Shown here: positions 127 to 19,428 of the stretch, piece by piece
How the letters are laid out: the number at the start of each line of letters is the position of its first letter
Position numbering within the stretch: the first letter of the stretch is position 1
From: an uncultured Sandaracinaceae bacterium
GTDB taxonomy: Bacteria > Myxococcota_A > Polyangia > Polyangiales > Houyiibacteriaceae
NCBI GenBank assembly: GCA_964534585.1
Contig: CAZHPJ010000001.1
Location: 1 to 24,091, forward strand
Direction of reading: 5' to 3'
Length of the DNA: 24,091 nucleotides
Notes under the pieces: model-generated
The model's database searches: none
Told to the model about the DNA's origin: nothing
Seen by the model: only the letters and a program-made list of their open reading frames with translations
Translations under genes and position numbers: made by a program

Positions 127-816
127 ACCGTCGACGCAAGTGACGTCGATCGTGTGGTCGCACTGGCAGTATTCGAAGCCGTCGTCGGAGACCGTGATGG
201 TGATCGTCTGCTCGCCGACCTCCTCACAGGTGAAGGTCGTTATCGGCACGGTGGGGTTCGCGAACGAGCCGCCAGTTCCGGTCCACCGGTACTCGATTTC
301 GTCCCCCTCGAGGTCCACAGCTATCGCATACACGTCGATCTGATGGCCCACCGAAGTTTGGAGAGGAGCGACCACCATTTTGATGAGCTCCGTACAAAAA
401 TTGAACTTCCCATTGACGCGTACCCCACCGAGCTCCTGCGGAGGCTTACAGTGGAGCATCACAGCCACCTCGGTCACCTGACCCACGGTGACATTGAAAT
501 TGGCCGAGCCCGAGCAAGACGTCTCACCGTCGGTGGACGTCGCGGTCAGCATGACGGTGTAGTTCATGCCGCCGGGGATGCCGTAGATCTCGACCGACGC
601 TGTCGCCCCGGGGTTGCTGGTGTTGATCGAGCCGACGATTGGCTCGATGTCGTTCCCTGTGACGGAGTAACTGACCTCGTCGATCTCGGTACCGTCGGTC
701 AGCTCGAGCTCGACGGTAAGGTCGCCTGAGGGGCCTGTGTCAGCTGCACATCCTGCGAAAGCAAGGGCGCCAAAGAGCCAGCCAACTAGCCAGCGCGTGG
801 GGATCCATGTGGGCAT
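1..816 (-). CDS. Predicted lipoprotein with Cys-containing beta-rich region and Gly-rich (GGx) linker; 3' end lies beyond the window
   Basis: Not in the ORF track because no stop is reached. ATG at 816 with GGAGA SD (825-821). My translation: MPTWIPTRWLVGWLFGALAFAG-C-AADTGPSGDLTVELELTDGTEIDEVSYSV...TFTCEEVGEQTITITVSDDGFEYCQCDHTIDVTCVDGDGGTGGTGGEGG. Lipobox AFAG-C; frame open to base 1. Confidence 0.85.
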   Translation of the reverse strand, partial: MPTWIPTRWLVGWLFGALAFAGCAADTGPSGDLTVELELTDGTEIDEVSYSVTGNDIEPIVGSINTSNPGATASVEIYGIPGGMNYTVMLTATSTDGETSCSGSANFNVTVGQVTEVAVMLHCKPPQELGGVRVNGKFNFCTELIKMVVAPLQTSVGHQIDVYAIAVDLEGDEIEYRWTGTGGSFANPTVPITTFTCEEVGEQTITITVSDDGFEYCQCDHTIDVTCVDGDGGTGGTGGEGGAGGEGGIGGEGGTGGEGGVGGTGGVGGTGG

Positions 817-893
817 AGGGTCTCCTGGGGGGCGCCGACGATATCACAACTCACGCTACGGCAATTGACGTTTTTCCTGGGACCCACCGGGAT

Positions 894-909
894 TGTGAGG
901 CGTCTCACA
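894..909. promoter_or_regulatory. CRP/FNR-family binding site (perfect TGTGA-N6-TCACA)
   Basis: TGTGA GGCGTC TCACA in the intergenic region, centred about 85 nt upstream of the lipoprotein ATG. Confidence 0.6.
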
Positions 910-976
910 CAAGGACACCTAACATAGAGACACCCCGTAAAGCCGACGCGTCGCGTCGTCCACGGGGCTTCGCTGT

Positions 977-1702
977 CTAACGCTCCTGGGCCTTGCCCGT
1001 CATCGGCACGAACCTCACTGGAATCACCGGCTCCTCGCGGTAGCCGTCCTTGGTGCGGGTCACCCGCATCAGGCTTTGGTAGTGCTTGCCGACGGGGATG
1101 ATGAGATGGCCCCCGACTTTGAGTTGTTGCTTCAAAGGCTCGGGGATCTTTGGCGGGGCGGCGGTCACGATGACTGCGTCGAACGGTGCGTGCTGCGGCC
1201 AGCCCGCGTAGCCATCCCCGTGCCGAACCTGCACCCGTTTACCGTAGCCAAGCTCGGAGAGGATGGCTTTGGCTTGCTTGGCAAGCGGCTCGATGATCTC
1301 GATCGAGAACACCTTCACGCCCATTTCCGCAAGCACCGCGGCTTGGTATCCCGAGCCCGTCCCGACCTCGAGCACCGTGTCGCCGGACTTCACATTGGCG
1401 AGCTCGGTCATCAGCGCGACGATGTACGGCTGGCTGATCGTCTGCCCGCGGGCAATGGGCAACGGCCGATCGTCGTAAGCGTGCGCCCGCTGCGACTCTG
1501 GGACGAAGCGGTGGCGCGGCACCTTGCGCATCGCCTCGAGTACACGGGCATCCCTCACCCCGCGTGCCTCGATTTGCCTTCGCACCATGTCGAACCGCTC
1601 TTGCTCGCGCGCCACCGGCTCAGGTGGGACGGCGTGGGCCGACCCCGACTTCTGACCGCAGGCGCCGAACACGAGCAGCGCCACCCATGTAGCTCTTCGC
1701 AT
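977..1702 (-). CDS. pcm: Protein-L-isoaspartate(D-aspartate) O-methyltransferase, with a lipoprotein-signal-like N-terminal extension
   Basis: Motifs [69 protein letters not shown] and VRFVPM. Start moved from the track's 2182, which would overlap lysC, to ATG 1702. Confidence 0.93.
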
Positions 1703-1771
1703 CGACGCTAAAATACCACGGAACCGGGCGGCAGTTGCTCCCCGGAAAGTCGCGGGTATCCTTCGGCGCCC
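1703..1771. promoter_or_regulatory. Divergent pcm/lysC promoter region, probably giving leaderless or SD-less transcripts
   Basis: Minus strand: extended -10 TG-G-TATTTT (1718-1710), then 7 nt to the pcm ATG. Plus strand: TTGCTC (1735-1740), N16, TATCCT (1757-1762), then 9 nt to the lysC ATG. Neither gene has an SD. Confidence 0.5.
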
Positions 1772-2995
1772 ATGAGGCTGGTAGTACAAAAATACGGCGG
1801 TACGAGCGTCGGTTCGCTGGACCGCATCCGCATGGTCGCGGAGCGAGTCGCCGAGACCTACCGTGAAGGCCACCAGGTCATCGTCGTGGTGAGCGCGAAG
1901 GCGGGCGAAACCGACCGATTGCTCAGCATGGGCTGGGAGCTTTCCGACGGGCCCGCGGAGCGTGAGATGGACGTGCTCGTCTCGAGTGGCGAGCAGGTCA
2001 GTGCCGCGCTCTTGGCGATCCAACTCAACGAAATCGGCGTCCCAGCGCGCTCGATGCTCGGCCACCAGGCGCGCATCTTGACCGACAACGTGCATCGCAA
2101 CGCCCGCATTCGCACCATCGATGGAACGGGGCTTCGCTCCTCGCTCGAGACGGGCAACGTGCTGGTCGTCGCAGGCTTCCAAGGCACGGATGCGTACGGC
2201 AACATCACCACCTTGGGGCGCGGCGGCTCCGACACCTCGGCGGTCGCGATCGCGGCAGCAGTCAAGGCCGACGTCTGCGAGATCTGCACCGACGTCGACG
2301 GGGTCTACACGACGGACCCAAGCGTCTGCTCCGGCGCGCGCAAGATCAAATGCATCAGCTACGAGGAGATGCTCGAGCTCTCGTCGCTCGGGGCCAAGGT
2401 CCTACAGATACGTTCGGTGGAGCTTGCGATGAAGCACCGGATGCCGCTGCACGTGCGCTCGAGTTTCTCGAACGCGGAGGGTACGATCGTGACCGATGAA
2501 GAACACCTGCTCGAAAAAGTCATCGTGGCCGGCATTGCGGCCGACAAGAAGACCGTGAAGCTGACCGTCAGTGCGCTGCCGGATCACCCCGGGGTCGTTG
2601 CGAGCGTGTTCGAACCGCTCGCTGAAGCCAACATCTCGGTCGACATGATCATTCAGAACATCTCGAAGCGAGGGCACACCGATGTGACGTTCACGGTGAG
2701 CCGCGAGGATGCGGACCACGCAGAGAGCATCGCAAAGGAGCTCGTCGCCAGCGTCGACGCGGAAGGCGTCGTGCGCGATGACAGCGTCGCTAAGGTTTCG
2801 ATCGTGGGCGTTGGGATGCGCAATCATGCGGGCATCGCCGCCCGTATGTTCCGGCTGCTGGCCGACAACGGCATCAACATCAAAGCGATCAGCACGAGCG
2901 AGATCAAGACCTCGTGCCTGATCGAGGCCGAGCACGCGGACCGCGCGGTGACCGTGCTCCACGACGGCTTCGACCTCGGCAAACCCGCCAGCTAG
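1772..2995 (+). CDS. lysC: Aspartate kinase (amino-acid kinase domain plus two ACT domains)
   Basis: [50 protein letters not shown]-terminal STSEIK; 407 aa. Confidence 0.97.
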
Positions 2996-3149
2996 CGTCG
3001 ATGGAGCAACGTCACGCGAGAACGGCCGATGGAGGGTCGTGGCGACCACATCACGATCCTCATCGATCCGGTCCGCCGCGTGCGTCGTGCTCGTGCTTGC
3101 GTGCAGCGCCATCGCCTCAGGCCGCCCCCTCCGGATTCGGCAACTGCCT

Positions 3150-3677
3150 TCAGTGAAGGTCGAAGCGAACGCCGACCCGCGCCCCAACCGTCAAAATGAA
3201 CGCGTCGAGCGGGCTCGCGGCGTTGGTGGCCACCCAGTAACCGCGCACGTCCGCGCCGACGAGCCATCGCTGGTTGATGAGATAGTCCACGCCAAATAAC
3301 ACGTGCAGGGCGAAGTCTCCCCGGCTCCTCCGATCGCGCACGGTCAACAGACCATCGAGGCCAAACCCGATCAACGGAACGAATCGGACGATGTCGAGCG
3401 CGTAGACCGTCTCGAGCCCGGCCATGCTGACGTGCAGCGGCCGTTCGGCCGGGAAGACGTTGTAGCTGAGGAGCCCCTGGATGCTCCATGCGTCACCGAC
3501 GCCTCCGCCAGCGCTAAGGCCCACATCAACGCCGTTGCGGGGGAGGGTGTCCGTGCTCGGGATCCCAGCGTAACCTACCGCCAAGCCGAGCGTCGCTTGG
3601 TCCTCGTACGCGTGAGCCATCGAAGGGAGTGATGCCACCAAGGCGAGGCTCCCAAAGAGCGAGACGAGGCAACGCAC
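3150..3677 (-). CDS. Small outer-membrane beta-barrel-like protein
   Basis: GTG start and signal peptide ending AHA-Y. Alternating amphipathic strands (GVDVGLSAGGG, WSIQGLLSYN, WLVGADVRGYW) and C-terminal VGARVGVRFDLH. Confidence 0.72.
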   Translation of the reverse strand: MRCLVSLFGSLALVASLPSMAHAYEDQATLGLAVGYAGIPSTDTLPRNGVDVGLSAGGGVGDAWSIQGLLSYNVFPAERPLHVSMAGLETVYALDIVRFVPLIGFGLDGLLTVRDRRSRGDFALHVLFGVDYLINQRWLVGADVRGYWVATNAASPLDAFILTVGARVGVRFDLH

Positions 3678-3721
3678 AGCGAGCCCTCTAGCATGGGGGT
3701 CACACGCGATGCGAGGCTACG

Positions 3722-3749
3722 TTGACTGGGCGAGGGCCCCGTGTATAGT
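3722..3749 (+). promoter_or_regulatory. Sigma70-type promoter for the TPR/BamB-like operon
   Basis: TTGACT (3722-3727), 16 bp, TATAGT (3744-3749); SD GGAGG at 3784-3788 precedes TTG 3794. Confidence 0.65.
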
Positions 3750-3793
3750 GCCGACGCGATTTGCCGGGTTTTCCCGGTCTTTTGGAGGAAGCC

Positions 3794-4651
3794 TTGGCCA
3801 ACGACCCTGCCGAAAACGAAAAGCAAGCGCCGCTCACCGCGGGCCAACGACTCGCCGCGCAGCAAGCAGCCAAGTCGGCTCGCAAGGCTGCAGGACGGGG
3901 TCGCGACGCAGACCTCGTCGAGGAGAAGGCGCTCGCGCAGGCCGCCATGGCGAAGGACTGGCTCCAAGACAACTTGAAGCCGCTGGGGCTCATGGCCGGC
4001 GGGGTGCTCCTAGTGGCCGCGGTTGGGATCGGATGGTCCACCTTCACCCACAACCAGGACGCTGCGGCGGGCGCCGAGCTCGCGGCGGTTCTCGAGGGCA
4101 GCGCGGACGACGACACGGCGCTTGCGACCGCCTACGCCGCAGTCGCCGATACGCACGCGAAGACCCCGGCAGCCGCATGGTCGCGAATCGGCGAGGGCAG
4201 GGCGCTCTACGCGCAGGGGCAGTGGGAGAAATCTCGGGCAGCCTACCAAGCCGCGCTCGATAGCAGCGACGACGAAGCGGTCCATTGGATCGCGCTCGAA
4301 GGAATCGCCTACACGCTCGAGGCGGAGAAGTCCTATGACCAGGCCATCGAGCAGCTCGAGGCTTTGCGTGAGCTCGACAGGAGCATCGCCCCGATCGCCG
4401 GGTACCATCAAGGGCGCCTCCTGGCCGAGCAGGGCAAGCTCGATGAGGCCAAGACCAAGTTCGATCGCGTCTTGAACGAGCTGAAGCAAGCGGACGCACC
4501 GCTGCTACCATACACGCAGGAACAGACCGAGGCGCGCCTCGCCCTCATCGAGCCGAGCCTCGCACCCGCAGCTGGCGTCGATCCACGCACGGCCGGCGAG
4601 TTCATTCGACAGATGAACGAGATGCTCCAACGGCAACCACCGCAAGAATAG
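3794..4651 (+). CDS. Membrane-anchored tetratricopeptide-repeat protein, YfgM-like
   Basis: Basic N-terminus, a single TM helix (LGLMAGGVLLVAAVGIGW) and TPR-like helices (GEGRALYAQGQWEKSRAAYQ, LEGIAYTLEAEKSYDQAI, YHQGRLLAEQGKLDEAKTKF). It lies directly upstream of a BamB-like gene, as yfgM does in E. coli. Start reassigned to TTG with SD. Confidence 0.78.
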   Translation: MANDPAENEKQAPLTAGQRLAAQQAAKSARKAAGRGRDADLVEEKALAQAAMAKDWLQDNLKPLGLMAGGVLLVAAVGIGWSTFTHNQDAAAGAELAAVLEGSADDDTALATAYAAVADTHAKTPAAAWSRIGEGRALYAQGQWEKSRAAYQAALDSSDDEAVHWIALEGIAYTLEAEKSYDQAIEQLEALRELDRSIAPIAGYHQGRLLAEQGKLDEAKTKFDRVLNELKQADAPLLPYTQEQTEARLALIEPSLAPAAGVDPRTAGEFIRQMNEMLQRQPPQE

Positions 4652-4655
4652 GCCC

Positions 4656-5861
4656 GTGCGATCGATACGCATCCGCTTCGCCGCCACCTTGGCTGTCGCC
4701 TCATCGGTGCTGGCGATTCCAGGCTGCGGAGCGGCCGGCGCGCCGGCGACCAACGCCGACAACTTCGGATGGGTGGAACAGGACGACGGATACGCGCGGC
4801 CGGGCGAGGGCGGTTTCAACGTCCGCTGGTCAAAGCAACTAACGGACCGTTGGGAAGCGCGCTATCTCCCGCTGGAGCTCAGCTCAGCGGAGTTCGATAG
4901 GAAGCGCCAGCGCGTCTACATCGGCACGACTGAAGGGAACATGTTTGCGTTCGCTCTGAACGGCCAAAGGTTGTTCTTCTACGACGCCGGCGCGCAGATC
5001 GAGTCGAAGCCTGCCGTCGATGCACGGACCGGTGAGGTGTACTTCCCGAGCGTCGACGGCACCGTACATGCACTGACGGTCGACGGCGGGGTCAAGTGGA
5101 GGACCAAGCTCATCGGAACCATGCGAACCCAGCCGGTGCTCACGGCTGACGCGGTGTACGTCGTAGGCGAGAACGACGTCGTAACGGCCCTTGCGCGAGA
5201 CGATGGGCGCATCCTCTGGACCTACGACAAGGAGCCGGTCGAGGAGATCACCATCGCCGGGCATGCCGGGATGCTGCTCGAAGAGGGGCGGCTCTACGCG
5301 GCGTTCACCGACGGCTCCGTCGCGGCGATGAATCCCACCGACGGACGGCTGTTCTGGGAGATCGAAACTTCACTCGATGTCGAGCTTCGACCGGGCAACG
5401 TCCCGCAATTCCTCGATGTAGACACGACCCCCGTGATGCTGCGTGGCACGCTGTATGTCGCCTCGTTTACGGCCGGCCTCTACGCCCTGGACGCCGCCAG
5501 CGGAACGGTGGAATGGAGAGATGCAGAATTTCAGGGCGTGACTGGCCTCGCAACGGCCGGACGGATGCTCGTCATCTCCTCGGCCCGCCGGGGTGTATCG
5601 CTCCTCGACCTGCGAACGCGCGAGGTCCAATGGGAAAAGGCTCCAGAGCGCGGCGCCCCCACCCCGCCGGTCGTGACCGAGAGGGGCACCGTGATCTACG
5701 GCGAAACACAAGGATCACTGCTGGCTCTCTCTCTCTCCGACGGACGCGAAATCGCCCGCGCCGAAGGTGGAGCTGGTTTCTCGGCGACACCATCAGCGGC
5801 GGGCACCCTTGGGGGAGCGATTTCCAACGGCGGCCGCTTCCTGTTCCTGCGGCTGAACTAG
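4656..5861 (+). CDS. PQQ-like beta-propeller lipoprotein, BamB-like
   Basis: GTG start and lipobox AIPG-C. Repeated A/L-x-D-x-x-T/D-G-x-x-x-W motifs (ALTVDGGVKW, ALARDDGRILW, NPTDGRLFW, ALDAASGTVEW). Confidence 0.82.
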   Translation: MRSIRIRFAATLAVASSVLAIPGCGAAGAPATNADNFGWVEQDDGYARPGEGGFNVRWSKQLTDRWEARYLPLELSSAEFDRKRQRVYIGTTEGNMFAFALNGQRLFFYDAGAQIESKPAVDARTGEVYFPSVDGTVHALTVDGGVKWRTKLIGTMRTQPVLTADAVYVVGENDVVTALARDDGRILWTYDKEPVEEITIAGHAGMLLEEGRLYAAFTDGSVAAMNPTDGRLFWEIETSLDVELRPGNVPQFLDVDTTPVMLRGTLYVASFTAGLYALDAASGTVEWRDAEFQGVTGLATAGRMLVISSARRGVSLLDLRTREVQWEKAPERGAPTPPVVTERGTVIYGETQGSLLALSLSDGREIARAEGGAGFSATPSAAGTLGGAISNGGRFLFLRLN

Positions 5862-7568: not shown

Positions 7569-8534
7569 TCAAGGCATTCGTTCGCCCGAGGCGAGACAGG
7601 CCCGAATGCCACTCCGGAGCTCGACGGAAGGCTCGAAGCCCATGCGCTGGGCGCGACTGGTGTCGTAGTGATATTGTCGGCCAACGACGCGAACCGCGTA
7701 GCGCGTGAGACGCGGCTCCCGGTGAGTGAGACGAGCCGCCGCCTCCATCGCGCCGGCCACGACCAGCGCCAGGTGATACGGGATGTGCTGGCGCGGGCAC
7801 GGGGCGCCGATCTCATCGGCTACGGTCTCTAGCAACTCACGCCATGTGCAATTCGCTGGATTGGTGAGGTTGTAGACACCGCCTGACGCGGCCGGCTCAG
7901 TGAGCACGAGTGCAAGAAAAGCAGCGACGTCATCCACGTGCACCAGATCGACGGTGTTGTCGCCGCGCCCGATGATGCGGGCTCTGCCAGAACGGAGGTT
8001 CTCGACGAGCTTGGGTAGAAACCTGTCGTCCCCCGGGCCGTAGATCACGCTAGGCCTGACGATGACGAGCTCGAACGCGTGTCGTGCCCGACGGCGCGCG
8101 GCTGCTTCGCTGTCGATCTTGGTGTCGCCGTAAGGGTCGCCTATCTTGCGCACGGGGGCGTCCTCGTCGAGTCGTTCGTTCGCGCGTCGCCCGTACACCG
8201 ACACCGAGCTCATGTGCACGAAGCGCCGAATCCCGGCGCGGCAGGCCTCGGCGGCGACGTTGTCGGTCCCGTCGATGTTCACCCGCCGGCACAGGTCCCA
8301 CTCCTGGCCATAGCCGACGACGCCGGCCAGGTGCACGACGCCGTCGTGATCCGTCATCAACCCCCGGATCGTCTGCGCGATGGTGATGTCCCCGCGAACG
8401 ATCGCAACACCATCGAACGCATCCTCGGACTCCTGCGGCAAGAGCAACGCGGTCACTCGATCGCCTCGATCGAGCAGGGCACGGATTAGGGCTCGTCCGA
8501 CAAAGCCCGTCGCTCCGGTAACGAAGACGCGCAT
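7569..8534 (-). CDS. Extended SDR / NAD-dependent epimerase-dehydratase (3-beta-HSD/OleD-like)
   Basis: [25 protein letters not shown], catalytic YGDTK (YxxxK), [18 protein letters not shown]. Confidence 0.9.
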
Positions 8535-8587
8535 GGCCTAAGCAGCCACCTGCACGGCGTACACGTCGAATCCCGTGGCCTCCTCGG

Positions 8588-11191
8588 TCACCCGCAACAC
8601 GTGCCCCCATGCGCCGTCCGCGCGATGATCTCATCCTTCATGGCTTCGGTGAGATCGTTGAAGTACGCGGAGTAGCCGGATATGCGCACCACGAGATCAC
8701 GATGCTTGTCGGGGTGTGCCTTCGCATCGATGAGCACCGCGGGGTCCATGATCTGCAGCTGCAACTGCATGCCACCTTGAGCGAAATAGCCCCGCACCAG
8801 GCCGTCGATGATCGCGGTGCCTCGATCGCCATCGACGAACGCGGGATGCAATTCCTGGTTCAGCACGCAACCGTTGCTCACCGACGCAACCCGCGCGGCG
8901 GAAGACAGCGCAGCCGTCGGTCCCCGTCGCTCGCGCCCCGTACGCGGCGAAATTCCGTTTGCCAGAGGCTCTCCCGCTCGCCGCCCCGACGGCAACGCCC
9001 CCAGCCGGTGTCCAAAACCTTGATGGGTGGTCATGGTCCAGAAGCCGGGCGAGTAGTGGCCGCTCCGCGGATTGCGCCGCTTCGCTACCATCTGTGCGAA
9101 CCGCCTGGACACCCGGGCCACGTGTCGATCTGCATCGTCGGAGTCCTCGCCGTACGTCCCAATGCGATTGAGGAGCCGCGCACGTAGCGTCTCGGACCCC
9201 ACGAAGTCATGGTCGAGCGCTTCGACCAGCGCGGCGAGGGTTACCCGACGCTCGCCGAACACGACTTGCTCGATCGCCGCCAACGAGTCGGCGACGTCCG
9301 CCAGGCCGACACCTTGCAATCCGCTCGTGTTGTAGATCGCTCCCCCGCCATTCACTTCACGCGCAGCGTCGATGCAACCATCGATCATGACCGAGAGCAG
9401 CGGTGTGGGGCGATGACGAGCGTGTGCGCGCTCGATCGCGTTATTTCCATCGGTTGCGTCGGCGATGAGGCGCTCGAGCTGTCGCTCGAACGCGGTGTAG
9501 ACGGCTTCCATCGAAGTCAGGACACTTGGTGCGCCGGTAGCTGGTCCCACTTGCCGGTCGCCGTCACGCCCATTGTGCAGCGCGAGGTGCAGCGCGTAAG
9601 CCATGTTGAGGAAGCCTGCGCCTGCGGCCGGAAACGAACGATAGGGCACGCCCCACTCGGCGCAGCCAACGATGGAATAGTCGCGCGCGTCACGGATCGG
9701 GACACCGGCATCGCGCTGGCTATCGATTACTCGGTCGTCGTTGAACAGTGCCGGAATGCCGCCACCCTTCTTCAGCACCTCGTAGCAGCGCGCGCGAAAC
9801 TCCCGGGGCGTTCCGGCATGCATGCGGACGTGAATGTTTGGTTGGCGAAGGCGCATTTGGTCGTACGCGTCGAGGAACACGTAGGAAAGATCATTGACCG
9901 CATCTATTCCCTCGGGAGTCTGACCACCGAGCGTAATGCCGGATGCAGACGACAACCCGCTGAAAAACTCGGTCGCACGCCCGAAGAACAGAGGTAACAG
10001 CTCCGCCGCCTTTCCGAGGAAGCAGCCGACGAGCTCGACGGCACGCTCACGTGTGAGCCGACCCGCCGCCAGGTCTCGCTCGTAGTAGGGCAAGAGATAT
10101 TGATCCATACGACCGAACGAGACGCCATGCTGAAAGCTCTCCTGATGCACGAGCACGTGGGCGATGAACACACTCTGGAGCGCCTCATGAAACGTCCTTG
10201 CGGGGTGTGCAGGAACCCTCTCGAACAGCTCGGCGAGCTGACGCAGCTCCGCACGGCGCATGGGATCGGCAGCTCGCGTCACTTCGGCGGTTAGAAACGT
10301 CCGCCACCGGTGGCCATAGGCGATGGCCGCTTCGGCAGCGATGGAAGCCGCCTGGAGAAATCTGCGCTGGGATCGCTGCTCGCGGGTCGGTCGGTGACGA
10401 GGCTGTGTCTCGATCTGGCGATCGAGCGCGGCCCTGCGCCGGCGGATGGAGTCGACGATCCCGGCGAAGCCGTGCGTGAGCACGGACGGATAGTCGGGGG
10501 TGACGTGCGAGATCCCTGCGAACTGTGTGAGCACGAACGCGCGCCCGTCCGTGAGCTTGTCGATCAGGTCCGGTCCCGCCGCATAAAGGGGCGTCGTCGC
10601 GAGCACCGAACGGCGGAACCAGTAGGGAAAGATCTCCTGCTCGAGAGCGCGCCGCTGGGCCGGGGTCGTCCTGATCGGATTGTCGTGCCGGCTGCCGAGC
10701 GTATCGAGCTCGGGCAGCAGCAACAGTCCGCCGTAGTCCGGATGCAGTGGAGCGCCGATTCTCTGGGAGCTCGGGTTGCCGACCAGAAGCTCATGGTCGT
10801 ACACCCGCAACTGCATGTGCTCGAGGGTGTGGCGAAGCGCCTTCGCGTGCGCCAGCTGCCAGTCGCTGGGCTGCATCCGGTCGATCCGTTGATACGCGCG
10901 CATCAACGTCGTGTTGAAGCGTGTCTTCCACCGTGGAGCGATCGCGCCGCGCGCCTGATCGCCGAGCCCACGCTGGTAGAGCCGATAGTGCCACCGCTCT
11001 AGCCAGCGCGGGACGCGAGACCGCGTCGTTTGCGCTAGGTATTCGGTCATCAGGGATGCCTTCTCGGTACACAGGTTGTACGGAGCGGCCAGCAAATCTG
11101 CGCGCAACGCGGCGAGGCGCGCGGATGGAGCGGCCGGCGAGACGCCAGTGGGATGGGAGGGGGAGGGACATGCGCTGACGGCTGAAGACAT
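8588..11191 (-). CDS. Glycyl radical enzyme (PFL superfamily, single-Cys type), substrate unknown
   Basis: C-terminal Gly loop LVVRISGYSAYF, Cys loop SIVGCAEW, plus ELLVGN, SFGRMDQYLLPY, ITLGG, RQPN and PSGRRAGEPLANGISP; 867 aa. Confidence 0.92.
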   Translation of the reverse strand: MSSAVSACPSPSHPTGVSPAAPSARLAALRADLLAAPYNLCTEKASLMTEYLAQTTRSRVPRWLERWHYRLYQRGLGDQARGAIAPRWKTRFNTTLMRAYQRIDRMQPSDWQLAHAKALRHTLEHMQLRVYDHELLVGNPSSQRIGAPLHPDYGGLLLLPELDTLGSRHDNPIRTTPAQRRALEQEIFPYWFRRSVLATTPLYAAGPDLIDKLTDGRAFVLTQFAGISHVTPDYPSVLTHGFAGIVDSIRRRRAALDRQIETQPRHRPTREQRSQRRFLQAASIAAEAAIAYGHRWRTFLTAEVTRAADPMRRAELRQLAELFERVPAHPARTFHEALQSVFIAHVLVHQESFQHGVSFGRMDQYLLPYYERDLAAGRLTRERAVELVGCFLGKAAELLPLFFGRATEFFSGLSSASGITLGGQTPEGIDAVNDLSYVFLDAYDQMRLRQPNIHVRMHAGTPREFRARCYEVLKKGGGIPALFNDDRVIDSQRDAGVPIRDARDYSIVGCAEWGVPYRSFPAAGAGFLNMAYALHLALHNGRDGDRQVGPATGAPSVLTSMEAVYTAFERQLERLIADATDGNNAIERAHARHRPTPLLSVMIDGCIDAAREVNGGGAIYNTSGLQGVGLADVADSLAAIEQVVFGERRVTLAALVEALDHDFVGSETLRARLLNRIGTYGEDSDDADRHVARVSRRFAQMVAKRRNPRSGHYSPGFWTMTTHQGFGHRLGALPSGRRAGEPLANGISPRTGRERRGPTAALSSAARVASVSNGCVLNQELHPAFVDGDRGTAIIDGLVRGYFAQGGMQLQLQIMDPAVLIDAKAHPDKHRDLVVRISGYSAYFNDLTEAMKDEIIARTAHGGTCCG

Positions 11192-12984: not shown

Positions 12985-14178
12985 TTACGCCTGAGCGACG
13001 GGTTGCCCGTTGCCCTGTGTCGATTTGCGCTGCCGTTTCAGACCGAAAACCTCCGCCTCGATCTCGAGCTCTTGCTCACCACGCGTCGTCTCGGCCTGCA
13101 GATAGTCTTTCTTCGTATGGTCGACGCGGGTGTAGCTCGCAACGGCATTGAACGCCGCGTTCAACACCGCCGAGAGCGCGGACGTGGAGATGGGGAATGA
13201 GAAACCGACACGATCCGACAGGTGGAAGACCTTGCGGGCGGTGGCTCCCGCGAAGTCGAAGGCGTCGATTCCGAGCTCGGCGAGATCCTCTTCGGCGAAG
13301 GCCACCGCGGGGACGAGCGGCAGGATGAGGCTCAACCGGTGAGCCCGGGCGAAGGGGTTCCTCTTCTGCCACGCGGTCAGTGGAAATTCCTTGAGATAGT
13401 TCGACGGCAGCGCGGTGTGTCGCGATTCGTCCCGGTGAAACAGCCGCAAGACCTCGAGGCCAGGCAGCGTGCTCATCATTCCGAACAGGCCTAGTGCGAA
13501 TCCCTCTACCACCACGTTCATGGCGAAGAACTTTTCGACTCCCTTCGATTTGAAGCCGCGTTCGAGCAACAGGTACTCCCAGATGGGCATCCGCGGAATC
13601 TCGCACTCGAAGGCTTGGAGCAGCTCGCGCAGAACGACGAAGTGCTTCGCTTCCTCTAGGACCTGCATCGTGAGCGCACCACGCGCCCCGGTACTCTTGA
13701 CCTCGTTCAGCAGCTCCGTAGAGACGAGCCAGGCGTAGGCCTCGCCGTGCCCGATGAGGGAGAGCACGTTGACGATCGCCTGCCGTTCACGTTCCGTGTA
13801 CTCGCTCATGATCTTGTCGCGGAACTCCTGGCTGCGAACCCGCTTGAGCTCCCGCAGCTCGTCCCGGTCCATGGACTTCTCAGCCATGCTCAGGAGGGTG
13901 AGCTCCTCCATCGTGCAGTCGCGGAAGTCGAGCCAGGGAGCCTGCTCCTCGGCCTTCCAGAGCAGGCGCATGCTCTTGTCGTAGTGCTTCTTGCGGAGCT
14001 GATCCTTGGCGCCGCCGTTGAACTCGTAGTGGATATCGTCGTAGTCGCCCTTGCGGCCCCCGAGATGGAGACGCCCCATCACCCCGTCGTAGCCTCGGAC
14101 TACGCTATTTACGACCTCTTCGACGCGGCGCTGGATCTTCGCGCTTTGCGGGTTGAGCTCGATCTTCTCGAATTCCAT
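12985..14178 (-). CDS. Ferritin-like diiron-carboxylate protein of unknown function
   Basis: Ligand pattern E146 / E176xxH179 / E225 / E251xxH254; ATG with GGAGG SD. Confidence 0.8.
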   Translation of the reverse strand: MEFEKIELNPQSAKIQRRVEEVVNSVVRGYDGVMGRLHLGGRKGDYDDIHYEFNGGAKDQLRKKHYDKSMRLLWKAEEQAPWLDFRDCTMEELTLLSMAEKSMDRDELRELKRVRSQEFRDKIMSEYTERERQAIVNVLSLIGHGEAYAWLVSTELLNEVKSTGARGALTMQVLEEAKHFVVLRELLQAFECEIPRMPIWEYLLLERGFKSKGVEKFFAMNVVVEGFALGLFGMMSTLPGLEVLRLFHRDESRHTALPSNYLKEFPLTAWQKRNPFARAHRLSLILPLVPAVAFAEEDLAELGIDAFDFAGATARKVFHLSDRVGFSFPISTSALSAVLNAAFNAVASYTRVDHTKKDYLQAETTRGEQELEIEAEVFGLKRQRKSTQGNGQPVAQA

Positions 14179-14274
14179 GGGCGTCCTCCGTGCACTTCGA
14201 CGCCGAGGTCGTCTCGGGCCTCTCCTGCTCTACTCGCAGCTTGCTCTCCAGGAAGTCGGATGCACAGGTGGAAG

Positions 14275-14302
14275 CCGGACAACGATTGGTCATTTCCGGC
14301 CA
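14275..14302 (-). promoter_or_regulatory. Candidate AraC-family tandem site (21-bp period)
   Basis: Minus strand TGGCCGG...TGTCCGG; the two heptamers (14302-14296 and 14281-14275) are 21 bp apart, upstream of the ferritin-like gene. Confidence 0.3.
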
Positions 14303-14380
14303 CAGCCGCCCTGCGGTCGGCCGCACCGCCTCCAGCGGAATCCTCGCGTCAGACGGGCGCTGCGCGCTACGATTGCGGCC

Positions 14381-16222
14381 GTGACTCACACGCGCAGGCG
14401 CGTCAGCCGACTCATTCGCGACGCGATCGCCCGTTTCGAGCTCGACCTGACCGATATGACCGTTCTGACCGAGGCGGCCACGGGCTACTACGCGTCAACG
14501 CCAGTCATTGCGGCGCTGGCCGGAGCCAAACGGGTGCTCGCGCTTGGACGGGACTCCCGATACGGGACTTTGGCCGAGGTGGAACGCTCCATTCGTTCCG
14601 TCGCAACGGAGCTTGGTGCCTTGGCTCCGATCGAAATCCTCCATGATCGATCCGACTCGATCATCGCCGGAACGGACATCGTCACGAACCTCGGCTTTGT
14701 GAGGCCCATCGACGAACCACTACTGTCCAAGTTGGGATCACAAGCTGTCGTCTCACTGATGTGGGAGACGTGGGAACACCGGCCGGAGGAAGTCGATCGA
14801 GACGCTTGCACACGCCTGGGCATTGCGATCCTCGGAACCGACGAGAACGACGAACGGTTGCGGACGCTAGACTATACCGGTCTGATTGCGGCCAAGCTTC
14901 TTTTGCAGCTCGACGTGGAGCTGCTGCGCTCGCGCGTTGCGTTGATCGGTAGCGGGGACTTCGCACGCAGCGTCATCGACAAGCTTGGAGGCCTTGGCGC
15001 ACAGGTCGACTGGATCGATGAAAGAGACCTCGAAGGAAAGGCCGCAACCGAGGTGCTCGAGTCGGCCGACGCCCTCGTGATCGCGATGGCCACGGGCCGA
15101 GAAACCTTGATTGGCGAATCTGGAGTTTTGAGCGCCGAGCAACTCGCACGGCTGAACCCTGACCTAGCGGTCGCCCACATCGCGGGCGGAGTCGATCGGG
15201 ACGCACTGGCAAGACATGGCCTTCGCTGCATGCCTGAGCGTTTTGCGGCCCCCCCACACATGAGCGCGGCCACGGATTATCTCGGACCGAAGCCGGTCAT
15301 CGATCTCCACACGGCGGGCTTGAAGGTCGGCGAGGCGCTCGCTCGTGCCCGCCGCGCAGGAATGGATGCCGAGCAAGCGCAGACCCACGTGCTCGAGCAC
15401 TCGCCGCTCGCGATGGCCTTTGACCTGCCTCCGCGCACGCCTCACCCGGCCGATGCGTTGCGTGCCCGAATACCCCGGCTCCGAGCAATGGTCTGTCTGA
15501 CGATCGACATCGACTGGGCCCCCGACTTCATCATCGACTACGTGCGGGAAACGTTGATCGAACGCGGCGTGCGCGCGACGTTCTTCATAACCCACGAGAG
15601 CCCCGCGTTGCGGCGATTGAAAGATCGCCCCGACCTATTCGAGCTCGGCATCCACCCTAATTTCTTGCCCGGGTCCACCCAAGGCAAGAGCATCGGCGGT
15701 GTACTCGAGCACTGCATGGCTTTGGCCCCGTCGGCGACCAGCATGAGGACGCACTGCCTGCATCAATCGACACCGATTCTTCAGCAAGTGATCACAGATA
15801 CGCCAATCGATACCGATGTCTCTCTACTCATGTCAGCGATTCGACCCCTCACGCCATTCGAGCACCGCTACGGCGACGGCTCGTTGCTGCGCATCCCCTA
15901 CGGTTGGGAGGATACGTTCTCCATGGAGTCTCGGGACATGAGTCGCCCCCCGATCGATCCAGCCTCCACCGGCCTGCAGGTGCTGGCGTTTCATCCGATC
16001 CACATCTACCTCAACTCCGCCTCGATGGATGACTACACCCGACTCAAGGCGCGAGTTGGTGATCTTGCAAAGGCCGGCATCGCCGAAGTCGACGAAGTAG
16101 TCCGGCAGGGCTTCGGCATCCGCTCGCGCTTCTTACACGTGGTCCGTCAATTGCAGGCCAGCGGTCGGTCTACCATGATTCGCGACGTCCGTCCGCACCT
16201 CCTACCGAGCCCGCCATCATGA
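14381..16222 (+). CDS. Fusion protein: divergent D-2-hydroxyacid-dehydrogenase-like Rossmann region plus WbmS-like polysaccharide deacetylase (NodB-type) domain
   Basis: N-part: DACTRLGIAILGTDE and RVALIGSGDFARSV, resembling the 2-HADH hinge and NAD loop. C-part from M at 15488: LTIDIDWAPD, ATFFITH, ELGIHPNF, SMRTHCLHQS, LAFHPIHIYLN. Start reassigned to GTG 14381, because the track's 14153 overlaps the divergent gene. Confidence 0.72.
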   Translation: MTHTRRRVSRLIRDAIARFELDLTDMTVLTEAATGYYASTPVIAALAGAKRVLALGRDSRYGTLAEVERSIRSVATELGALAPIEILHDRSDSIIAGTDIVTNLGFVRPIDEPLLSKLGSQAVVSLMWETWEHRPEEVDRDACTRLGIAILGTDENDERLRTLDYTGLIAAKLLLQLDVELLRSRVALIGSGDFARSVIDKLGGLGAQVDWIDERDLEGKAATEVLESADALVIAMATGRETLIGESGVLSAEQLARLNPDLAVAHIAGGVDRDALARHGLRCMPERFAAPPHMSAATDYLGPKPVIDLHTAGLKVGEALARARRAGMDAEQAQTHVLEHSPLAMAFDLPPRTPHPADALRARIPRLRAMVCLTIDIDWAPDFIIDYVRETLIERGVRATFFITHESPALRRLKDRPDLFELGIHPNFLPGSTQGKSIGGVLEHCMALAPSATSMRTHCLHQSTPILQQVITDTPIDTDVSLLMSAIRPLTPFEHRYGDGSLLRIPYGWEDTFSMESRDMSRPPIDPASTGLQVLAFHPIHIYLNSASMDDYTRLKARVGDLAKAGIAEVDEVVRQGFGIRSRFLHVVRQLQASGRSTMIRDVRPHLLPSPPS

Positions 16223-18177
16223 CGTTGGCTCCCGTCATCGCACAGGCCATTCGCATCCGGGCCTTCGAAAGCAAATTGCTCGAGCTCTTCGGCGAGGACG
16301 CTTTCTCGGGAACGGTGCACACCTGTATCGGCCAAGAGCTGTGTGCCACCGCGCTCGCTCCCCATCTGGACATCGGACGAGACGCATTCGTGGCAACCCA
16401 CCGCGGTCATGGACACTACCTCGCCTTAGGTGGACCACCAGACGCGTTGCTTGCCGAGCTCATGGGTCGGGAAGGCGCCCTTTGTCGCGGCCGTGGCGGA
16501 TCCCAACATCTGTGCCACCGAGGCTACATCAGCAGCGGCGTGCAAGGCGGTACGCCTCCGTTGGCGGTCGGGCTGGGCTGGGCGCGAAAGCTCAGAGGCA
16601 CGGACGCCATCGCCGTTGCACAAGTGGGTGACGGCACGTTCGGGGAGGGCGCGCTCTACGAGGCCATGACCTTCGCCGCATTGTGGAGCGTGCCCGTGCT
16701 CTTCTTGGTCGAGTACAACGGCATTGCGATGACCACCGACGTTGCAACGACCACGCCGGGGGATCTAGAAAAGCGTATCGCGGGCTTCGGTGTGGGCTAC
16801 GACCGCCGTTCGGACATGGAGCCAGAGGCGCTACACGCGCACATGGGCGAAGTCGTCTCGCGGGTGCGAGCCGGTCAGCCGTTCATGCAGATCATCGACA
16901 CGCGTCGACTGGCAGCCCACAGCAAAGGGGACGACACTCGGCCCCCCGAAGTCATCGCTGCCCTGCAGGCCCGTGATGCGGTGCAAGACGTTCTAGATTC
17001 CGATCCGGAAGCGGCCGCGCTCATGGGACGCTACGCCAAGGAGGTAGGCCGGCTTGCCGGCGAGGTGCGGGAGCGACCGCTGATCCCCTTTGAAGATGGT
17101 CCGGTGCTTCCACGGCCGTCCCCATGCGACCACACGGCTTCGGAGCCACCGGGCGGTGACGTCCGAATCGTTCAGCGCCTCAACGCTGAGCTCCATCGCA
17201 TGATGGACCAAGACCCCTCGATCGTGGTCATCGGCGAAGACCTGGCCGATCCATACGGGGGCGCATTCAAGGTCACACGCGGTCTATCCGCTGCACACCC
17301 GGAGCGGCTCTTCAACACACCGATTTCCGAAGCTGCCATCGTGGGCGTTTCCAATGGACTGGCCCTTGGCGGTGCTCGCCCGATCGCCGAGATCATGTTT
17401 GCCGACTTTGCTTTTCTGGCGGCGGACCAGCTGATCAACCACGCAGCCAAGTTCCACTACACGTACGCCGCTCAGGTCACTTGTCCGCTGACGTTGCGTT
17501 TGGTCTCCGGCGGCGGACGCGGCTACGGGCCCACCCACAGCCAGTGCACGGAGCTAGCGTTTTGCGGCATTCCAGGGCTCCGGGTCTTGGCGCTGTCCCA
17601 TCGACATCCGCCGGAGCGGCTGCTGCGCGCGGCAGTCTACGACGATGCGCCGACGATTTTGGTCGAACACAAGGCGCTCTATGGTCTCTTCCCACCGCAA
17701 GAGCCGCCGCTTGATCTGACGCGGTGCGAGACTTCGGACGAAGCAGGCGAGCCACTGCCCGAATATGCGCCCTTGTGTTTCGCACCCCTGGACGATGAGA
17801 GGGCGGATGTCACCCTCGTGACCTACGGCGGAACGGCACCGATCGTCGAGGAGGCCATGCGTGAGCTCATCCTCCAAGACGAGCTCCGCTTCGAGTACAT
17901 CATTCTCACGCAACTTTGGCCGCTACACGCCGCGCCCATCGTGGCGGCAGCTCATCGCACCAGACGTCTAGTGATCGTGGAAGAAAGTGTTGCGACGTTC
18001 GGCTTGTCGGCGGCCATCGCCGCCGCAGTGGCCCAATCGCCCGGGCCCCAGGTAGCGATTGGGTCTGTTGGCGCCGCGCCTGTTCCGATTCCGTGTGCAC
18101 GTCATCAGGAATCCTCTACGCTGCCAACGACTCGATCGATCGCTGACAAGGTTCGATCCATGATGCGCAGCGAGTGA
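16219..18177 (+). CDS. Fused alpha+beta E1 component (ThDP-dependent 2-oxoacid dehydrogenase / transketolase-like)
   Basis: Alpha: GTVHTCIGQE, THRGHGHYLA, GRGGSQH, ThDP motif GDGTFGEG...VEYN, RRLAAHS. Beta: GEDLADPYGGAFKVTRGL, NTPISEAAIVG, EIMFADF, GYGPTHSQ. ATGA overlap with the upstream gene. Confidence 0.92.
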   Translation: MTLAPVIAQAIRIRAFESKLLELFGEDAFSGTVHTCIGQELCATALAPHLDIGRDAFVATHRGHGHYLALGGPPDALLAELMGREGALCRGRGGSQHLCHRGYISSGVQGGTPPLAVGLGWARKLRGTDAIAVAQVGDGTFGEGALYEAMTFAALWSVPVLFLVEYNGIAMTTDVATTTPGDLEKRIAGFGVGYDRRSDMEPEALHAHMGEVVSRVRAGQPFMQIIDTRRLAAHSKGDDTRPPEVIAALQARDAVQDVLDSDPEAAALMGRYAKEVGRLAGEVRERPLIPFEDGPVLPRPSPCDHTASEPPGGDVRIVQRLNAELHRMMDQDPSIVVIGEDLADPYGGAFKVTRGLSAAHPERLFNTPISEAAIVGVSNGLALGGARPIAEIMFADFAFLAADQLINHAAKFHYTYAAQVTCPLTLRLVSGGGRGYGPTHSQCTELAFCGIPGLRVLALSHRHPPERLLRAAVYDDAPTILVEHKALYGLFPPQEPPLDLTRCETSDEAGEPLPEYAPLCFAPLDDERADVTLVTYGGTAPIVEEAMRELILQDELRFEYIILTQLWPLHAAPIVAAAHRTRRLVIVEESVATFGLSAAIAAAVAQSPGPQVAIGSVGAAPVPIPCARHQESSTLPTTRSIADKVRSMMRSE

Positions 18178-18190
18178 CACCAGGAGGCCC

Positions 18191-19252
18191 ATGTCGATAC
18201 CACACGAGATCGTCGTCCCGCGCCTCAACGTCGCCGATTCGACCCTTCGTTTGGTCAAATGGACCGTCCGCAGCGGCGAGCGCGTCGAGCCCACCACGGT
18301 GATTGCGATCCTCGAGACCAGCAAGGCAACCTTCGAGATGACTGCCGAAACCGGTGGTCATCTGCATCATCTGGCGGACATCAACGAAATCGTCAGTGTC
18401 GGGCAGACCATCGCGCTGCTTACCGACAGCCCCGAGGTACCCGATACCACGGACCATAGTGCATCGACGCTCACCATCGAAATCGCAGGGGAGGGTCCCG
18501 AGATCAGCGAAAAAGCCCGCCCCCTGATGGCGCAACATGGTTTGACCGGAGCGGACTTCCCGGGACGATCGGTCGTGCGAAAGCAAGACGTAGAAGCGCT
18601 CGTTGCGACCGGACCAGGCGATCAGAAAGCCAAGCGCGAGCTCCGTTTCGGCGACGAAGTCTTCGATCTCGATGAGGAATGGGACGCCGCGCTCGCCTCG
18701 GAACACTATCAACAATTGCGTGCCACGCTCACGAAGCTGAGGCGGCGCATGAAGGCGCGCTTCGACCGACACGTATCGACGGGCGAGTTGCTCTACGACC
18801 GATGGGACATGGCTCGCGACCACGGCTTCGGTGAGGGCTCATCGATCTATGATACGTGCCTGCTGCTCGGAGACGTTCGAGTAGGCAAGCACTGCTGGGT
18901 GGGTCCCTTCACGGTGCTCGATGGCGCGCACAGCCCTCTGGAAATCGGAGACTACTCTTCGATCGGAAGCGGCACCCAGATCTACACGCACAATACGATT
19001 CAGCACGTTCTGACGGGCGGCCAACAAGAGGCTTTCCATGAGCCCACGCAGATCGGACGTTGTGTTTTCGTCTCTCCGATGTGCGTCATCGGGGCGGGTA
19101 CCGCCATCGGCGACCATAGCTTCGTCGCTGCAGGCAGCTACGTCGAAGGCCGCTTTCCATCACATAGCTACATCGCCGGAAATCCAGCGACGAAAATCGG
19201 TCGAGTGGTCGTTGAGGGTGATCGTGCGCACCTCTTCCGCAAGCGGCGATGA
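18191..19252 (+). CDS. Lipoyl domain + E3/E1-binding (PSBD-like) domain + left-handed beta-helix (hexapeptide) acyltransferase
   Basis: Lipoyl motif LETSK45A; PSBD-like ISEKARPLMAQHGL...RKQDVEAL (aa ~105-137); hexapeptide repeats VRVGKHCWVG, LEIGDYSSIGSGTQIYTH, TQIGRCVFVS, TAIGDHSFVAAGS, IAGNPA. AGGAGG SD. Confidence 0.85.
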   Translation: MSIPHEIVVPRLNVADSTLRLVKWTVRSGERVEPTTVIAILETSKATFEMTAETGGHLHHLADINEIVSVGQTIALLTDSPEVPDTTDHSASTLTIEIAGEGPEISEKARPLMAQHGLTGADFPGRSVVRKQDVEALVATGPGDQKAKRELRFGDEVFDLDEEWDAALASEHYQQLRATLTKLRRRMKARFDRHVSTGELLYDRWDMARDHGFGEGSSIYDTCLLLGDVRVGKHCWVGPFTVLDGAHSPLEIGDYSSIGSGTQIYTHNTIQHVLTGGQQEAFHEPTQIGRCVFVSPMCVIGAGTAIGDHSFVAAGSYVEGRFPSHSYIAGNPATKIGRVVVEGDRAHLFRKRR

Positions 19253-19394: not shown

Positions 19395-19428
19395 CCGTTC
19401 CTGTACTGACCGGCCAGTACAGGAACGG
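19395..19428. promoter_or_regulatory. 34-bp near-perfect palindrome, candidate TetR operator, abutting the tetR start
   Basis: CCGTTCCTGTACTG-ACCGGC-CAGTACAGGAACGG: 14-bp perfect arms, ending 5 nt before ATG 19434 and overlapping the GGAG SD. Confidence 0.7.

Follow-up and report, generated by a model that had tools for sequence, protein, structure and literature searches.

A conserved pair of genes for a fused E1 and a lipoyl/beta-helix protein in an uncultured Sandaracinaceae bacterium: a putative 2-oxoacid-dehydrogenase-type machine rewired for glycan tailoring

To our knowledge only a handful of lipoylated systems are known, all of which hand an acyl or aminomethyl group to coenzyme A (CoA), tetrahydrofolate or, in the case of QncL, an acyl carrier protein (ACP). 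In the biosynthesis of quinocarcin (QncN, QncL and QncM) and scleric acid (SclQ1-4), E1/lipoyl chemistry hands a glycolyl unit to the ACP (PMC6335953). The O-antigen of Psychrobacter cryohalolentis K5 contains 2,3,4-triacetamido-2,3,4-trideoxy-L-arabinose (PMC8040287). Here we describe a three-gene cassette which joins E1 and lipoyl components to a left-handed beta-helix (LbH) domain related to an N-acetyltransferase of the latter organism. The cassette lies in the window, by which we mean the entire 24,091-nt contig CAZHPJ010000001.1 of an uncultured Sandaracinaceae bacterium (assembly GCA_964534585.1), a metagenome-assembled genome that is 87% complete. Its genes are:

Gene 1, 14381-16222, + strand: NAD-fold domain fused to a WbmS-like deacetylase domain
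Gene 2, 16219-18177, + strand: fused E1 alpha-beta enzyme dependent on thiamine diphosphate (ThDP)
Gene 3, 18191-19252, + strand: lipoyl domain, linker and hexapeptide LbH

From the comparisons presented below, we consider it fairly probable that the cassette encodes a machine of the 2-oxoacid dehydrogenase type, pared down to a minimum and redirected to the tailoring of glycans. The window combines a single-chain E1, an LbH of the Pcryo_0619 type and an NAD-domain/WbmS fusion. The initial annotation knew of no characterised pathway that brings together genes like those of the trio, and full-text searches of the literature, including lipoyl with hexapeptide and lipoyl with O-antigen, likewise turned up no account of a protein that unites lipoyl and LbH domains.

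When homologues that match gene 3 over its full length (44-90% identity) are clustered at 90% identity, at least 260 clusters result. Among 1.84 billion representatives, a profile search returned 170 proteins at E <= 1e-30, and about 35 further 50%-identity representatives join a lipoyl domain to this LbH. Among GTDB species genomes the fusion was recovered at 21 loci, all of them metagenome-assembled, from Myxococcota, Gemmataceae, Isosphaeraceae, Rubripirellula, Acidobacteriota, Candidatus Didemnitutus and Hyphomonadaceae. Co-occurrence with E1 was counted over 24 non-redundant lipoyl-LbH loci with enough flanking sequence, which span five phyla (Myxococcota, Planctomycetota, Acidobacteriota, Verrucomicrobiota and Alphaproteobacteria). 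A fused E1 gene is present in all 24 and lies directly upstream in 23; in locus L013 an inserted gene pair has moved it away from the lipoyl-LbH gene. The E1 homologues (51-58% identity) share contigs with the lipoyl-LbH homologues, and the identity levels of the two run parallel. Judged by these comparisons, the E1/lipoyl-LbH pair is a real conserved module. Recurrence of the genes elsewhere, on which the initial annotation had made its proposal depend, extends to the fusion of the two gene 1 domains: this is rare and adjoins E1 in each of six independent cases (the window, L012, L013, L031, L032 and L102/L108).

In O-antigen loci of Gemmataceae, Acidobacteriota, Isosphaeraceae and Verrucomicrobiota (Didemnitutus), the pair fills the last slot of a gene string consisting of a short-chain dehydrogenase/reductase (SDR), a DegT aminotransferase and an LbH, and it is flanked there by Wzm/Wzt, by glycosyltransferases of family 2 or 4 (GT2, GT4) or by a Wzx-type flippase. 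A position after SDR and DegT was observed for about 10 orthologous lipoyl-LbH loci and for most stand-alone LbH loci, and not for the window. Transferases of the GT-C class adjoin the module in L013 (PMT/ArnT-like) and in L018 (YfhO-like). The initial annotation had proposed a survey of gene neighbourhoods with an eye to glycan loci, and for the pair such loci emerged. These neighbourhoods bear on an explanation of a quite different kind, namely that the pair serves energy supply or detoxification by oxidising a 2-oxoacid or something akin to acetoin, the LbH replacing the E2 core in the formation of acyl-CoA and the link to sugars being coincidental. Such a catabolic mini-dehydrogenase would suit the window, where the trio has regulators, a glycyl radical enzyme and hydrolases as neighbours instead of genes for glycans, and the JGI label of the E1 homologues ('2-oxoisovalerate dehydrogenase E1'). 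The related loci are, however, overwhelmingly glycan loci (Wzm/Wzt, DegT, SDR, GT2, flippase, GT-C), the LbH is nested among sugar N-acyltransferases and deacetylases co-occur with it; we therefore regard a catabolic role as very improbable.

When the lipoyl-LbH gene was sought in 40 related genomes, 24 of them of the same genus, only partial LbH matches were obtained, and because of this absence the cassette is not considered a lineage trait. In the nearest carrier, L012 (86-92% identity), the trio has other neighbours, homologues of which sit on other contigs of the window's genome. Together with the absence from relatives, these differing neighbours suggest that the trio behaves as a movable unit.

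Several further observations were made on related loci. In L012 (4410-6376) the E1 is called in two pieces of 502 and 129 amino acids, reflecting a frameshift or an assembly error. L016 carries two E1/lipoyl-LbH pairs (3-1627 and 8014-11113), with approximately 30% mutual identity, in one amino-sugar cluster, which suggests two different acyl groups or acceptors. A stand-alone 2-oxoacid_dh protein of 293 amino acids (E2 core, DHRAVDG), without a lipoyl domain, is encoded at 7195-8076 of L102 and 2384-3262 of L108. Its gene lies directly upstream of the N-domain/WbmS and E1 genes in one Myxococcota lineage; fragments persist in L031 and L032, and a 32%-identical stand-alone copy is found on contig C240 of the window's genome.

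The product of gene 3 comprises three parts:

18191-18430, + strand: lipoyl domain, with the predicted lipoylation lysine K45 (codon 18323-18325) in the motif ETSKAT
18500-18613, + strand: two-helix linker resembling a peripheral subunit-binding domain (PSBD), amino acids 104-141, with a conserved pattern
18683-19252, + strand: LbH acyltransferase domain with its N-terminal helices, Pcryo_0619 clade, catalytic-type His267

Pfam matches to Biotin_lipoyl (4.5e-7, 30 bits against 22.1) and Hexapep (3.6e-14) bear out the original description of this protein as a lipoyl domain joined to an LbH acyltransferase. Biotin_lipoyl was detected in all 54 members of the gene 3 family, with K45 invariant throughout. 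The best NCBIfam matches to the N-terminus are E2 proteins and the domain is modelled as a beta-barrel with a pLDDT of about 90; we predict that K45 is the lipoylation site. The linker follows the pattern KARxL..HGL...F.G..VVR..DVE, in which A109, R130 and D133 are invariant. It is modelled as two helices, and the alignment to the NCBIfam SucB profile spans it; judged by eye it looks like a PSBD, which would dock E1 or E3, and we refer to it as PSBD-like. The E2 core resembling chloramphenicol acetyltransferase (CAT-like; 2-oxoacid_dh, PF00198) was found neither in gene 3 nor in any of its 54 homologues, and for this reason the cassette cannot be counted as a member of the pyruvate dehydrogenase (PDH) or branched-chain 2-oxoacid dehydrogenase (BCKDH) complexes.

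The LbH with its N-terminal helices is approximately 50% identical (E = 3e-35) to PDB entries 8vr6, 8vr7 and 8vrm, which Foldseek describes as the Pcryo_0619 N-acetyltransferase of P. cryohalolentis K5 (TMt 0.78). We take this protein to be the enzyme of the final N-acetylation in the triacetamido-sugar pathway of that strain, a pathway from the Holden laboratory's work which is presumably built on an ArnA/ArnB-like SDR and aminotransferase. H267 is invariant among the 54 homologues, and R193, R204, Y220, W236, D244 and H267 are common to the fused LbH and its stand-alone orthologues. The latter, in about 35 genomes, occur almost always in the string Hexapep (WbpD-like) - GFO_IDH_MocA (WbpB-like) - SDR - DegT - LbH. 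Based upon the likeness to Pcryo_0619 and the SDR-DegT-LbH slot, an activated amino sugar very probably serves as the acceptor through its amino group. Members of this LbH clade were also found with other fusion partners: a formyltransferase (Formyl_trans_N/C) in P0401, and glycosyltransferases of family GT1 in P0388, P0392 and P0395.

Gene 2, annotated from the start as a fused E1 alpha-beta, indeed contains E1_dh (4e-33), Transket_pyr (2.5e-31) and Transketolase_C (1e-14) domains. The ThDP motif GDG...N is present, and in the beta part the ThDP-activating Glu (PISEAA) and the active-site His (THSQC) align with those of 1um9, 2bp7 and 1ni4. On these motifs the protein is predicted to be a ThDP-dependent 2-oxoacid decarboxylase/dehydrogenase component. 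Its scores against the NCBIfam models for PDH, BCKDH, DXS and transketolase are all far below the cut-offs. An attempt to call the substrate from likeness to PDB and NCBIfam entries was dropped, the alpha part being nearest to PDH and the beta part to BCKDH at such scores.

Gene 1 encodes two domains:

14381-15487, + strand: N-terminal NAD(P)-binding domain (N-domain), formate/glycerate-dehydrogenase-like fold (weak 2-Hacid_dh_C match and structural model)
15488-16222, + strand: C-terminal WbmS-like de-N-acetylase domain, PF22537

The C-terminal domain matches PF22537 over profile positions 1-186 of 186 (1.4e-53; 182 bits, cut-off 27) and Bordetella WbmS, PDB 3hft, at 4e-30 with 31% identity (Foldseek TMt 0.75). 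The motifs DIDWA, GxHPNF, RxH, PYxWED and FHPIH are common to both proteins, so that the assignment as a WbmS-like deacetylase stands. No demonstrated substrate of Bordetella WbmS was found in the literature. The N-domain had been called 2-hydroxyacid-dehydrogenase-like, and this holds at the level of the fold only. The AlphaFold model has a pLDDT of 83.5, with the N-domain mostly above 85, and the nearest folds are dipicolinate synthase A (DpaA), S-adenosylhomocysteine (SAH) hydrolase, phosphoglycerate dehydrogenase and 2-hydroxyacid dehydrogenase (TM 0.5-0.57, identity 11-16%), DpaA and SAH hydrolase being as near as the D-2-hydroxyacid dehydrogenases. The profile evidence did not hold up: 2-Hacid_dh_C (PF02826) scores 18.3 bits, below its cut-off of 25.1, and a Pfam scan found no PF00389 match in gene 1. 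Conserved in the family are a GSGxF Rossmann motif and the invariant residues E129, E132, R134, H266 and H310.

The N-domain is chiefly a stand-alone protein of about 355 amino acids and as such belongs to O-antigen loci devoid of E1. The survey of its context covered 43 loci from metagenomes, each 5 kb or longer. The commonest setting is SDR - DegT - Asn synthase-like - N-domain, with Asn synthase in 22 of the 43, and E1 is nearby only where the N-domain is fused to WbmS. Two loci (L155 and L161) carry WbmS, the N-domain and a stand-alone LbH without E1, and the majority of E1/lipoyl-LbH loci lack the N-domain. This pattern of co-occurrence, a matter of gene context, indicates that the N-domain is a sugar-tailoring partner of WbmS and LbH. 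The idea that it feeds E1 with a keto acid, which goes back to the initial annotation, where a dehydrogenase makes the 2-oxoacid, was rejected on the same pattern.

Three unrelated de-N-acetylase families adjoin lipoyl-LbH genes, according to lineage: WbmS-like (six loci), carbohydrate esterase family 4 (CE4; L103) and PIG-L (L104-106). L103 contains a CE4 Polysacc_deac_1 gene, split E1 alpha and beta genes and a lipoyl-LbH protein of 518 amino acids, and in L104-106 the genes that follow the one for a lipoyl-LbH protein of 506 amino acids encode a de-N-acetylase of the PIG-L family and a flippase. These CE4 and PIG-L partners belong to more divergent lipoyl-LbH clades. Deacetylase-bearing loci (the window, L012, L031, L032, L102, L103 and L104) are without DegT, and DegT loci are without a detectable deacetylase. 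The simplest reading of this complementarity is that the LbH depends on a free amine of the sugar, supplied either by transamination or by de-N-acetylation. The earlier suggestion that the LbH acylates an amino sugar unmasked by the deacetylase gains from it, as it does from the CE4 and PIG-L partners and from the placement of the LbH in a clade of NDP-amino-sugar N-acyltransferases. To remove an acetyl group and then put it back would be futile, and so in cassettes of the deacetylase type the acyl group that derives from E1 is probably something other than acetyl.

The deacetylase might instead reverse the LbH step and not prepare for it. ArnA formylates UDP-L-Ara4N to pull transamination, and ArnD removes that acyl group. 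In an Arn-like cycle of this type the LbH would acylate a 4-amino sugar to pull an unfavourable transamination, a GT2 would move the acylated sugar to polyprenyl phosphate, the WbmS-like domain would strip the same acyl group and a GT-C enzyme would transfer the free amino sugar. Transient acylation of this sort is suggested by L013, where GT2 and PMT/ArnT-like GT-C genes lie between the lipoyl-LbH gene and the N-domain/WbmS and E1 genes, by L018, where the YfhO-like GT-C is directly upstream of E1, and by the ArnA/ArnB-like enzymes on which the Pcryo_0619 pathway is presumably built. Set against this, the deacetylase-type loci contain no DegT aminotransferase, so that there is no transamination equilibrium to be pulled, the window has neither a GT2 nor a GT-C gene, and the cost of an E1/lipoyl donor is hard to justify for a group that is to be discarded. 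We consider such a cycle unlikely.

According to the preferred reading, lasting acylation of an amine, the E1 encoded by gene 2 would use ThDP to decarboxylate a 2-oxoacid, or to cleave a related donor, and would reductively acylate the lipoyl-K45 of gene 3. The swinging arm would bring the acyl-dihydrolipoyl thioester into the trimeric LbH of the same protein, the LbH trimer standing in for the trimeric E2 core, and the LbH would pass the acyl group to the free amine of an amino sugar that is linked to a nucleotide or a lipid. In the window this amine would be made by the WbmS-like de-N-acetylase of gene 1, with the net result that N-acetyl is swapped for the E1-derived acyl group; in other lineages it would come from the SDR and DegT aminotransferase pair. 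The housekeeping E3 would re-oxidise the dihydrolipoyl arm, and the NAD-fold domain of gene 1 may act on the sugar or on its substituent in an accessory step, and would not supply the substrate of E1. There is no dedicated E3 in the operon or elsewhere in the window; lipoylation and re-oxidation should be available because canonical E2 and E3 (lipoamide dehydrogenase) genes are present on other contigs of the genome. The description of the cassette as 'self-contained' is thus correct in part: E3 and lipoylation have to be supplied by other regions of the genome. In its strongest form, the proposal is that an acyl-dihydrolipoyl thioester, loaded by E1 from a 2-oxoacid, N-acylates cell-surface amino sugars without acyl-CoA or acyl-ACP. 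An unusual acyl group (e.g. glycolyl, propionyl or branched-chain) would replace N-acetyl, the LbH trimer would replace the E2 core, and lipoate would have a role hitherto unrecognised. This we offer tentatively, as a reading that falls a little short of probable.

A number of points weigh against this proposal. Transfer from the lipoyl arm to a sugar, the nature of the acyl group and of the acceptor, and independence from CoA are all predicted from sequence. Every carrier of the module is an uncultured genome. The sequence of the E1 does not reveal its substrate: the identity to either of the housekeeping E1 sets of the genome is about 30-35%. As for the linker, Pfam detects E3_binding (PSBD, PF02817) in 0 of the 54 gene 3 family members; a hidden Markov model of the region, run against all open reading frames (ORFs) of the genome, recovered its own gene only and missed the PSBDs of the housekeeping E2 proteins; and hhalign against the two E2 PSBDs of the genome gave the expected register at E = 0.14, so that no PSBD is claimed here. 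In the window no glycosyltransferase, aminotransferase or nucleotide-sugar gene adjoins the trio. Finally, the fused LbH keeps the residues of its CoA-using orthologues and its closest solved relative uses acetyl-CoA, so that CoA may take part.

When the fused and stand-alone LbH domains were compared for lost CoA-binding residues, no informative difference was seen. Perhaps, then, the LbH still binds CoA, and the lipoyl arm acylates this bound CoA or feeds a local acyl-CoA pool; the module would be a private acyl-CoA generator, and the LbH would transfer from acyl-CoA to the sugar. The retention of residues found in stand-alone, presumably acetyl-CoA-using orthologues is consistent with such a relay, as is the approximately 50% identity to an enzyme crystallised with CoA-type ligands. 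The covalent fusion of arm and LbH and the missing CAT-like E2 core favour direct use of the tethered thioester instead, and we know of no LbH domain that catalyses thioester exchange to CoA. On balance we judge a CoA relay improbable.

The three genes are as tightly coupled as first annotated: the coordinates match, genes 1 and 2 overlap by 4 bp (ATGA) and genes 2 and 3 are separated by a 13-bp gap. Gene 1 was taken to start at GTG 14381, though its ORF opens at 14153, because homologues of 613 amino acids and the family consensus agree on this position. The non-coding features are:

18178-18190, + strand: spacer between genes 2 and 3, 13 bp, with AGGAGG as the predicted ribosome-binding site of gene 3 (sequence)
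14179-14380, no strand: intergenic region between a divergent gene for a 397-amino-acid protein (-) and gene 1 (+), presumed promoter region (ORF layout)

No sigma-70 consensus was found in the latter region, and its promoter role is presumed from the divergent arrangement. The upstream flank holds genes for a glycyl radical enzyme, TetR and AraC regulators and the 397-amino-acid protein, which has no assignment; downstream are TetR, an alpha/beta hydrolase, a radical SAM protein and a ChlI-like ATPase. Annotation of the window revealed no glycosyltransferase, ACP, E2 core or E3 gene. The earlier statement that these, together with NDP-sugar genes, are missing nearby is correct within about 5 kb; farther from the trio, an SDR epimerase/dehydratase-family gene lies at 7569-8534 (-).

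The 397-amino-acid protein (12985-14178, -), transcribed divergently from gene 1, has no Pfam match and possesses two E..H motifs (EEAKH and DESRH), which are suggestive of a ferritin-like di-iron protein. Its gene was rejected as a member of the cassette, being missing from all related loci. The glycyl radical enzyme (8588-11191, -; 867 amino acids, PFL-like and Gly_radical domains) is followed by the TetR and AraC regulators, and no activase gene for it was found in the window. A perfect 12-nt inverted repeat, GTTCCTGTACTG-N6-CAGTACAGGAAC, at 19397-19426 lies 8 nt upstream of the TetR gene at 19434 and is likely to be the operator at which TetR acts on the transcription unit that follows (TetR, hydrolase, radical SAM). 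Elsewhere in the genome, contig C77 (L100) carries at 464-5283 (-) the string SDR - DegT - (cytidylyltransferase + PfkB kinase) - LPG_synthase_TM, in which no N-acyltransferase follows the aminotransferase. It is a possible source of the cassette's acceptor, and no link between the two was seen.

If the proposal is correct, a lipoyl arm feeding a sugar acyltransferase would constitute a new class of lipoate-dependent enzyme and would provide glycan tailoring with a third kind of acyl donor, beside acyl-CoA and acyl-ACP. The decoration of surface sugars would be tied directly to keto-acid pools. Uncultured bacteria of several phyla carry the module in soil, sediment and freshwater, and it could explain unassigned N-acyl groups of O-antigens. 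The predicted intermediates are easily detected by mass spectrometry, and the proteins are soluble.

Comparison with known systems places the cassette between several of them. The order of deacetylation and acylation recalls LpxC/LpxD of lipid A and MshB/MshC/MshD of mycothiol biosynthesis, in which a deacetylase exposes a GlcNAc-derived amine and a second enzyme attaches a different acyl group to it, LpxD being itself an LbH protein; in those systems the donors are acyl-ACP, aminoacyl-AMP or acetyl-CoA, and neither a lipoyl arm nor an E1 is involved. WbmS of the Bordetella O-antigen locus (3hft) shares 31% identity and the conserved motifs with the deacetylase domain, and its system too is without lipoyl arm or E1. 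The ArnC-like GT2 and ArnT-like GT-C of aminoarabinose modification are absent from the window and present only in the related L013.

The 2-oxoacid dehydrogenase complexes (Geobacillus and mitochondrial PDH, BCKDH, acetoin dehydrogenase) resemble the cassette in their ThDP-dependent E1 with GDG...N and the beta-subunit Glu and His, in the E2-type lipoyl domain with its lysine and a trimer-forming C-terminal catalytic domain, and in that an E3 is available in the genome; the linker of gene 3 may correspond to their PSBD. As far as the acyl-lipoyl step, the cassette would operate as these complexes do. The cassette differs from them in that an LbH sugar acyltransferase replaces the CAT-like core (PF00198, DHRxxDG), E1 alpha and beta form one chain and there is no dedicated E3. 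Its predicted acceptor is an amino sugar and not CoA, and the context of the related loci is glycan synthesis rather than central metabolism. With QncN/QncL/QncM and SclQ1-4 it shares a dedicated E1-type ThDP enzyme and a lipoyl domain that load a small acyl group for an acceptor other than CoA; those systems keep an E2-type acyltransferase domain and an ACP for the nonribosomal peptide synthetase line, whereas the cassette has neither and carries the LbH transferase instead. Pcryo_0619, finally, is alike in about 50% identity over the whole LbH including the N-terminal helices, in the YTH(N/D) histidine and in the SDR-DegT-LbH gene string shared by the orthologues. It is a stand-alone protein of 182 amino acids, crystallised with acetyl-CoA and CoA ligands, to which the protein of the window adds a lipoyl domain, a linker and an E1 partner.

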